This document shows positions 7,578-7,601 of a stretch of 13,636 nucleotides of DNA, one piece after another. Within the stretch, counting starts at the first letter, position 1. Every line of letters begins with the position of its first letter. The notes beneath the pieces were generated by a model. That model was not told the origin of the DNA. It did not search any database and saw only the letters and a list, made by a program, of their open reading frames with translations. The stretch is from Escherichia coli (GTDB lineage Bacteria; Pseudomonadota; Gammaproteobacteria; Enterobacterales; Enterobacteriaceae): the NCBI RefSeq assembly GCF_003334315.1, contig NZ_QOWR01000080.1; one strand, 5' to 3'. The translations under genes were made by a program, and so were the position numbers.

Positions 7578-7601
7578 CAGGGCCCCTTTACCGGGGCCCT
7601 G
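7578..7601 (-). other. Perfect 9-bp stem-loop (CAGGGCCCC-TTTACC-GGGGCCCTG) in the nanM-nanS intergenic region
   Basis: Directly visible GC-rich hairpin between the nanM stop (7607) and nanS start (7542). No adjacent T tract on the transcribed strand, so probably an mRNA structure rather than a strong terminator. Confidence 0.4.

Follow-up and report, generated by a model that had tools for sequence, protein, structure and literature searches.

A conserved stem-loop at the 3' end of nanM in the nanCMS operon of Escherichia coli, a candidate leaky terminator or exonuclease barrier

What does a G+C-rich perfect hairpin do inside an operon, and to which of its two neighboring genes does it belong? 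This question is raised by the short space between nanM and nanS in a 13,636-nt stretch of Escherichia coli DNA (hereafter the window), where the original prediction, made from the letters of the sequence, proposed an RNA processing or stability element or a partial attenuator that tunes nanS expression relative to nanCM. The gene names and the strand given in that prediction agree with the RefSeq annotation of matching E. coli loci and with K-12 (NC_000913.3), from which the gene identities are taken: nanC, nanM, and a sialate O-acetylesterase gene (nanS), all on the minus strand (Table 1). The curated K-12 record (NC_000913.3) contains no annotation in the nanM-nanS gap. In the literature, nanCMS is a single operon controlled by NanR (PMC3658417; PMC5010248), and the nanS message increases together with those of nanC and nanM upon NanR inactivation or Neu5Ac supply (Vimr 2013 review, PMC3658417). 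Given that nanS is induced as part of one operon, read-through of the hairpin must occur, most of the time.

Table 1. Features of the nanCMS region in the window, with the equivalent K-12 positions and the basis of each entry
Feature	Window position	Strand	K-12 position	Basis or remark
nanC, KdgM-family sialic acid porin, first gene of the operon	8733..9449	-	4538785-4539501	
nanM, N-acetylneuraminate epimerase/mutarotase, 368 aa	7607..8713	-	4537659-4538765	RefSeq match; the hairpin is its 3' flank
nanM stop codon TAA (7607-7609) and 5-nt spacer CGCUU	7602..7609	-		Sequence, junction comparison
Stem-loop	7578..7601	-	4537630-4537653	Sequence, shuffle test, RNA folds, covariation
A+U-rich 35-nt spacer CUAUCAAUUUACCAUUUCAAUUACGCGAAAAUUAU, hairpin to nanS ATG	7543..7577	-		Sequence, scans, comparison
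nanS, sialate 9-O-acetylesterase, 326 aa, intact ORF	6562..7542	-	4536614-4537594	Downstream of the hairpin

The plus strand at this position reads CAGGGCCCCTTTACCGGGGCCCTG, that is, CAGGGCCCC-TTTACC-GGGGCCCTG, and the minus strand, which has the sense of the mRNA, reads CAGGGCCCC-GGUAAA-GGGGCCCUG. The two arms form a perfect stem of 9 bp, of which 8 are G-C pairs, closed by a 6-nt loop, and the hairpin by itself folds to approximately -21 kcal/mol on the sense strand. The order of elements in the RNA is UAA-CGCUU-CAGGGCCCC-GGUAAA-GGGGCCCUG-CUAUCAAUUUACCAUUUCAAUUACGCGAAAAUUAU-AUG, with 5 nt between the nanM stop codon and the start of the stem and 35 nt between the end of the stem and the nanS start codon. 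In 200 dinucleotide-preserving shuffles, perfect stems of at least 9 bp with loops of 3-10 nt arise on average 0.51 times per 13.6-kb window, and a stem of this length with at least 8 G-C pairs appears in none of the 200. The 70-nt intergenic RNA folds to -22 kcal/mol in the sense orientation (z = -3.3; 0 of 200 shuffles as good) and to -24.1 kcal/mol in the antisense orientation (z = -2.8). The hairpin is non-random and not a product of chance, and the G+C-rich perfect 9-bp hairpin that had been claimed between nanM and nanS is borne out by the sequence and by the 200 shuffles.

The 73-nt intergenic region is matched in 5,037 of 5,426 complete E. coli genomes (~93%), where it occurs at a median of one place per genome and a maximum of two (E-value up to 10), and the hairpin occurs once in the window. 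On the basis of this single-copy distribution in 5,037 genomes, we rejected a REP/BIME or other dispersed repeat, which would be one of many copies sharing a consensus. The hairpin does resemble REP/BIME palindromes in being a G+C-rich palindrome in an intergenic region at the 3' end of a gene; it differs from them in being found once per genome, with nothing annotated at its K-12 position. Its sequence presumably bears no resemblance to the REP consensus. A known RNA family was likewise rejected, given that a search of the whole window against Rfam gave no match at the gathering score and that permissive thresholds returned noise, with matches around the hairpin at chance level (E-values of at least 0.44).

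Within E. coli, the stem is found in a small number of forms. Among the 5,426 complete genomes, the 9-bp stem has 3,253 exact matches with the loop GGTAAA and 451 with the loop AGTAAA. An 8-bp form, in which the GGGG run of the 3' arm is one G shorter, folds to approximately -16 kcal/mol and is found on both loop backgrounds (660 exact matches, one to a genome, with GGTAAA and 184 with AGTAAA), which points to recurrent slippage in the GGGG run or to recombination between haplotypes. Changes on one side of the stem bear on the strand that is folded. A C-to-U change in the 3' arm of strain MRSN352231 gives a G-U pair in the sense RNA and an A-C mismatch in the antisense RNA, with folding energies of -18.8 versus -14.8 kcal/mol; a single-sided change in E. 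albertii (locus L032) behaves in the same way, and in both the energy loss is smaller on the sense strand. In the rare variant L041 the penultimate pair is A·C, a change that permits a wobble pair on the antisense strand only, and in L029 it is A·A. The mRNA-sense strand is favored by two of the three single-sided variants.

To place the hairpin in a wider context, nanM 3' flanks were collected from a NanM scan of species-representative genomes, from the contigs of NanM homologs, from a metagenome scan with a degenerate pattern of the last nanM codons, and from NanS homologs. Loci were classified by tblastn with NanC, NanM, and NanS, and NanM identities are relative to the window protein (Table 2). 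The scan of genome contigs with NanM returned four Escherichia loci only. Lineages with NanM identities of at least 77% have stems of -11 to -21.5 kcal/mol, with the exception of L018, L021, and three lineages with a partial deletion, described below. The stem of E. albertii L015 has been shortened by a 1-nt deletion, and RNAfold draws it with seven pairs, one of them U-A. A separate nanK-nanC-nanM-nanS operon (L022, L054, L055), whose NanM and NanS are 71% and 67% identical to those of the window, has at this place a 9-bp G-C hairpin, AGCCCGGAG AUAU CUCCGGGCU, the sequence of which is unrelated to that of the E. coli stem; this hairpin begins 5 nt past the stop codon of nanM, has no T tract, and leaves 8 nt to the nanS ATG. 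A gap of 5-6 nt between the stop codon and the hairpin is recurrent, being found in E. coli, L017, L022, and E. albertii.

Table 2. Stem-loops 3' of nanM in Escherichia and relatives (5' arm, loop, 3' arm)
Locus	NanM identity	Downstream of nanM	Stem-loop	Stem
E. coli (window)	Reference	nanS	CAGGGCCCC GGTAAA GGGGCCCTG	9 bp
E69, L043	93%	nanS	CAGGGCUCC AGCAAA GGAGCCCUG	Pair 7 C-G to U-A
L027, L033, L049	92%	nanS, intact	CAGGGCUCC AGUAAA GGAGCCCUG	Pair 7 C-G to U-A
SCPM-O-B-8794, L048	90-91%	nanS	CAGGGCCUC AGUAAA GAGGCCCUG	Pair 8 C-G to U-A
E. albertii L028	87% (partial match)	nanS, internally deleted	CGGGCUCC UUUAAA GGAGCCCG	8 bp; pair 2 A-U to C-G
E. albertii L032	86% (partial match)	No nanS match (short contig)	As L028 with one extra change	U-G wobble in the sense RNA
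E. albertii L015	85%	nanS, internally deleted	GGCUCC UUUAAA GGAGCC	6 G-C pairs
L017	85%	No nanS	CAGGGCUCC GGUUAG GGAGCCCUG, then UUAUCAAU	Full 9 bp; homology ends ~10 nt later
L044	90% (partial match)	No nanS	CAGGGCUCC CUUAAA GGAGCCCUG, then UUAUCAU	Full 9 bp
L019, L020	77%	yjhB-yjhC	GACUCUC GUGCA GAGAGUC, then CUACAUUUUAUUUUCC	7 bp

The changes that separate these stems are largely symmetric. Besides the lineages marked in Table 2, the replacement of C-G by U-A at pair 7 is also found in L017, L044, and E. albertii, and pairs 4, 5, 6, and 8 are altered on both sides in L019. In an unedited MAFFT alignment of 17 distinct junctions, 95.2% of the cells are in standard pairs and two pairs have changed on both sides, with pair 7 split between C-G (7) and U-A (7); controls slid along the same alignment are 54-60% paired or lower, and L019 lies off register by one column owing to its 5-nt loop. 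In a second alignment, restricted to the arms of 10 distinct stems and registered to the structure by hand, 92.2% of the cells are paired and six of the nine pairs are altered on both sides, a result that 0 of 500 shuffles equaled and that compares with at most one both-sided pair in slid registers. The number of independent double-change events is small (~7). The 5' spacer is free to vary (CGCUU, CUUUU, CCUUU, CUUAC, CUCAU, UGCUU), as is the loop, whereas changes in the stem are nearly always compensated; together with the pairing in both alignments, this argues for selection on pairing rather than on sequence, which in turn argues against a sequence-specific DNA-binding site. Covariation is to be read with the caveat that a DNA palindrome would also give symmetric changes, and we consider it probable, by a comfortable margin, that the stem is a selected RNA structure. 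Conservation in other nanCMS operons had been put forward as a check on the original prediction; there, the hairpin has been kept through compensatory substitutions.

The original prediction had also described the stem as lacking a T tract, which is essentially correct. The E. coli tail, CUAUCAAUUUACC, contains at most four T per 8-nt window (windows starting 0-2 nt past the stem), and a terminator scan of both strands with a rule of at least five T in 8 nt left the hairpin site unflagged (best four T in 8 nt). Despite the missing T tract, the tail is A+U-rich, and the first 8-10 nt of the spacer (YUAUCAAU) are kept along with the hairpin, including at loci without nanS. A U run directly 3' of the stem, as in an intrinsic terminator, is absent from E. 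coli but present in the L019 homolog, whose T-rich tail leads the scan to flag it as terminator-like. The scan also flags L026 (NanM 59%), in which a 13-bp stem is followed by a T-rich tail, and at the same place 3' of nanM a weak stem is followed by a T7 run in L018 (Salmonella Eastbourne) and by a T8 run in L021. The tail of E. coli and its closest clades (YUAUCAAUUU) is a degenerate counterpart of the T-rich L019 tail, and given that the E. coli tail fails the terminator rule, termination there, if any, is likely weak. A separate nanS promoter 3' of the hairpin was rejected, as the scan found no promoter-like site between the hairpin and the nanS ATG; the 35-nt spacer contains no clear Shine-Dalgarno sequence for nanS.

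The comparison also bears on the question of which gene the hairpin accompanies. Full 9-bp hairpins are present 3' of nanM in L017 and L044, neither of which has nanS; the nanM-yjhB gap of L019 contains a 7-bp homolog; and E. albertii retains the stem beside a pseudogene of nanS. In L044, homology stops a few nucleotides past the stem, and for L017 and L044 together it extends ~7-10 nt beyond it. Judged from these flanks, the hairpin belongs to the 3' end of nanM and not to nanS or to the nanM-nanS junction. That it is kept where nanS is absent, decayed, or replaced by yjhBC suggests that its primary role is probably in the formation or protection of the nanCM 3' end, and nanS would be tuned, if at all, as a result of that role. 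The proposal of a stability element or partial attenuator therefore stands in part: conservation and the lack of a U tract speak for it, and such elements are the natural class for this hairpin, but the anchor is the 3' end of nanM rather than the junction with nanS.

Several rearrangements have endpoints in or next to the hairpin. In E. coli fS149a (L010), the end of an IS1 element (GGTAATGACTCC...) abuts the last base of the 3' arm, at approximately window position 7578; nanS is missing, and nanM and the hairpin are intact. In E. whittamii (L012), Escherichia sp. E1V33 (L014), and a metagenome locus with a NanM 97% identical to that of the window (L031), the hairpin is cut after CAGGG and fused to degraded nanS sequence, so that some lineages can dispense with the element. 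The junction in these three loci contains a new 8-bp stem, UUUUCAGG-N10-CCUGAAAA (-8.6 kcal/mol), which may be selected, a by-product of the deletion, or a coincidence. In L018 (Salmonella Eastbourne) and on the metagenomic contigs L019/L020, nanC-nanM is followed directly by homologs of yjhB-yjhC, which encode an MFS transporter and a GFO/IDH/MocA oxidoreductase; the two NanR operons of E. coli, nanCM(S) and yjhBC, are here one contiguous cluster. This arrangement suggests that the E. coli layout, with both operons apart in the KpLE2 region, is derived. The nanS gene of Citrobacter farmeri is found in a nanR-nanS-nanA-nanK context with no nanM, and one NanS homolog (P0128) is phage-borne. Import of the hairpin with a prophage nanS-p was rejected because the homology to Stx phages begins ~16 nt inside the nanS coding region and leaves the intergenic region uncovered.

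Known systems offer two points of comparison. The sequence has the stable G+C-rich stem-loop of intrinsic terminators and, like them, directly follows a stop codon where a conserved gene module ends; moreover, the L019 homolog with its T-rich tail passes a simple terminator scan, and L026, L018, and L021 provide analogs with T runs. It differs from intrinsic terminators in its E. coli tail, CUAUCAAUUU, in which the best window holds four U in 8 nt, and given the presence of the coregulated nanS gene 35 nt downstream, termination at the E. coli hairpin cannot be efficient. Stabilizing stem-loops between cistrons are known from E. coli, in the REP hairpins of malE-malF, and from Rhodobacter, in the puf operon. 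With leaky terminators and intercistronic stabilizers, upstream cistrons are expressed more highly because a fraction of the polymerases stops at the stem and because PNPase and RNase II are held up there on transcripts that have been processed or terminated by Rho. As in malE-malF and puf, the nanM hairpin is a stable hairpin without a U tract or other terminator features between cistrons of the same transcription unit, and from its position it could shield the upstream segment against 3' exonucleases, with higher expression of the upstream genes; unlike the malE-malF REP hairpins, it is not a REP/BIME copy, being unique in the genome and unrelated in sequence. By analogy, a -21 kcal/mol stem without a U tract fits the class of leaky intraoperon terminators and intercistronic stabilizers.

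Based on these comparisons, we hypothesize that an RNA stem-loop forms on the nanCMS transcript right after the nanM stop codon and that the nanC-nanM module carries it as a conserved 3'-end element. In E. coli, its likely effects are weak and leaky intrinsic termination, or pausing, and a block to 3'-to-5' exonucleases. A nanCM RNA ending at the stem would be stabilized, whether that end arises by termination there, by Rho-dependent termination downstream, or by endonuclease cleavage in the A+U-rich spacer, and nanS would be expressed only from read-through transcripts, leaving NanC and NanM above NanS. The folding of the RNA in vivo, the termination, pausing, or block to decay, and the lower level of nanS relative to nanCM are inferred. 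We assign a probability of roughly 0.55 to this reading, a leaky terminator and/or exonuclease barrier at the nanCM 3' end with nanS expressed by read-through.

An alternative is that the stem is a neutral relic of an intrinsic terminator of an ancestral nanCM operon, whose U tract decayed once nanS or another gene lay downstream and which does nothing measurable now. The relatives with T-rich tails or T runs at the same position and the degenerate tail of E. coli are as this history would predict, as are the partial deletion of the hairpin with no obvious consequence in E. whittamii, E1V33, and L031 and its shortening in one E. albertii genome. However, E. coli, E69/L027, and SCPM-O-B-8794/L048 all have the YUAUCAAU tail, so that the compensatory double changes within Escherichia postdate tail decay, and stem pairing of 92-95% beside a freely varying 5' spacer and loop, together with the stems of -11 to -21.5 kcal/mol in nearly all lineages with at least 77% NanM identity, leads us to consider a relic unlikely. 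Translation offers another route to control of nanS, in which the ribosome terminating on nanM melts the 5' arm and the hairpin gates reinitiation, coupling, or ribosome access to the weak nanS start, or in which termination at the stem depends on the distance between ribosome and polymerase. The recurrence of the 5-6 nt gap, the lack of a clear nanS Shine-Dalgarno sequence, and the L022 hairpin that ends only 8 nt before the nanS ATG are in line with such control. The E. coli stem, however, ends 35 nt before the ATG, outside the footprint of a ribosome binding there, the hairpin is equally conserved in L017 and L044, which have no nanS, and the constant spacing may reflect only common descent; we therefore regard this form of control as rather improbable. 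A related proposal is a translation-coupled switch at the nanCM 3' end itself. The 5' arm starts 5 nt past the nanM stop codon in diverged lineages and in the operon with the unrelated stem, so that the stem would be kept open by a ribosome at the end of nanM; only when translation of nanM lags would it close, and it would then either stop transcription or make the message accessible to processing. We view this switch as a speculative extension with about one chance in ten.

The remaining explanations place the function outside the nanCMS transcript, and both are very improbable. An element acting at the level of DNA might bind a protein, serve as a cruciform or recombination hotspot, or delimit an island, and the endpoints described above coincide with the palindrome: the IS1 end in fS149a abuts the 3' arm, the deletion in E. 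whittamii, E1V33, and L031 begins inside the 5' arm, and the homology of L017 and L044 stops shortly past the stem. In addition, nanS borders a variable island, and the annotated flank in ECCHD184 begins with a tRNA-Leu gene and an integrase remnant. Yet these breakpoints are equally explained by selection that keeps nanM and the hairpin while the downstream DNA is free to vary, and the element occurs once per genome; furthermore, six different pair identities are tolerated, which is unexpected for a sequence-specific site, and in the G-U wobble variants the DNA palindrome is broken although the RNA still pairs. A role on the opposite (plus) strand, as a terminator of or barrier to antisense transcription running through nanS toward nanM, has in its favor that the stem is equally stable on that strand, that GUUUUG lies 8 nt downstream of the stem in the plus-strand tail, that the L041 variant is wobble-compatible there, and that antisense transcription over the K-12 nanS gene has been mapped. 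That mapped 3' end, however, lies ~900 nt upstream of the hairpin, the plus-strand tail AAGCGUUAG does not amount to a U tract and the scan leaves the site unflagged, the single-sided variants favor the sense strand in two of three cases, and the fixed short distance past the nanM stop codon in all lineages follows a sense-strand logic.

The antisense 3' end in question, listed in the supplement of Adams et al. 2021, is Rho-dependent and lies at K-12 position 4536716(+) (~6664 in the window), within the 3' portion of nanS; it indicates that antisense transcription enters nanS from the island side. The Term-seq supplements of the same study (Adams 2021) contain no sense-strand 3' ends in nanCMS, an operon that is repressed under the laboratory conditions mapped, and the SMRT-Cappable-seq supplements have no nan entries. 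Full-text searches of the literature on nanCMS, yjhA/T/S, and nanC/M/S found no paper describing the hairpin and no RNA-seq, Northern, or half-life measurements of nanCMS, and the terms hairpin, terminator, and stem-loop are absent from the review by Vimr (PMC3658417). The hairpin is apparently an undescribed member of a familiar class of operon elements.

Other features of the window are recorded here as observations. The nanS ORF is intact and corresponds to the characterized K-12 enzyme b4309. In many E. coli genomes (L002, L004, L006-L008), PGAP calls the chromosomal nanS a pseudogene ("incomplete; missing C-terminus"), probably because the family models derive from the prophage NanS-p proteins, which are longer. 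There is no terminator-like structure 3' of the nanS stop codon (window 6440-6565), which makes the hairpin 3' of nanM the only strong stem of the nanCMS transcription unit, and a convergent 216-aa ORF (5904-6554, plus strand) with no NCBIfam match ends 8 nt from the nanS stop. A search of the whole window for NanR operators with simple GGTATA-repeat patterns gave nothing meaningful, even upstream of nanC. The region upstream of nanC does contain an 8-bp A+T-rich inverted repeat at 9595-9615, TGTGAAAA-ATCTC-TTTTCACA, whose arms resemble CRP half-sites (TGTGA/TCACA) with a spacing that departs from the CRP consensus. The longest palindrome of the window, at 280-310, is a perfect 14-bp inverted repeat with a 3-nt center, AATTCTCCCGGTGA-CTA-TCACCGGGAGAATT; it lies in noncoding island DNA ~190 nt upstream of an ORF at 497-1315 and could be an operator or a terminator. 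This left part of the window is island DNA, in which a RadC-family ORF (1345-1818) is followed by small ORFs with no NCBIfam match in a layout (1345-2525) that resembles the tail of a CP4-type prophage island, and the island part also holds an ORF resembling an HTH antitoxin (4194-4982).

The mechanism that we favor for the nanM hairpin, a leaky terminator and/or exonuclease barrier, is a textbook one, and its wider significance is accordingly small. In practical terms, the first 30 nt past nanM should be treated as a conserved functional element when nanS is engineered or deleted or when cassettes are placed in the gap, a site where an insertion, DARS2, has been published (PMC5010248). Were the translation-coupled switch to operate, the NanS:NanM ratio and the stability of the nanCM mRNA would report the translation of the gene for a periplasmic mutarotase. 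Should the stem control how much NanC and NanM is made per NanS, a higher output of porin and mutarotase than of esterase from one NanR-controlled promoter would be accounted for. The hairpin would then mark the true 3' boundary of the ancestral nanCM module, alongside which, depending on the lineage, nanS, yjhBC, or island DNA has been placed.
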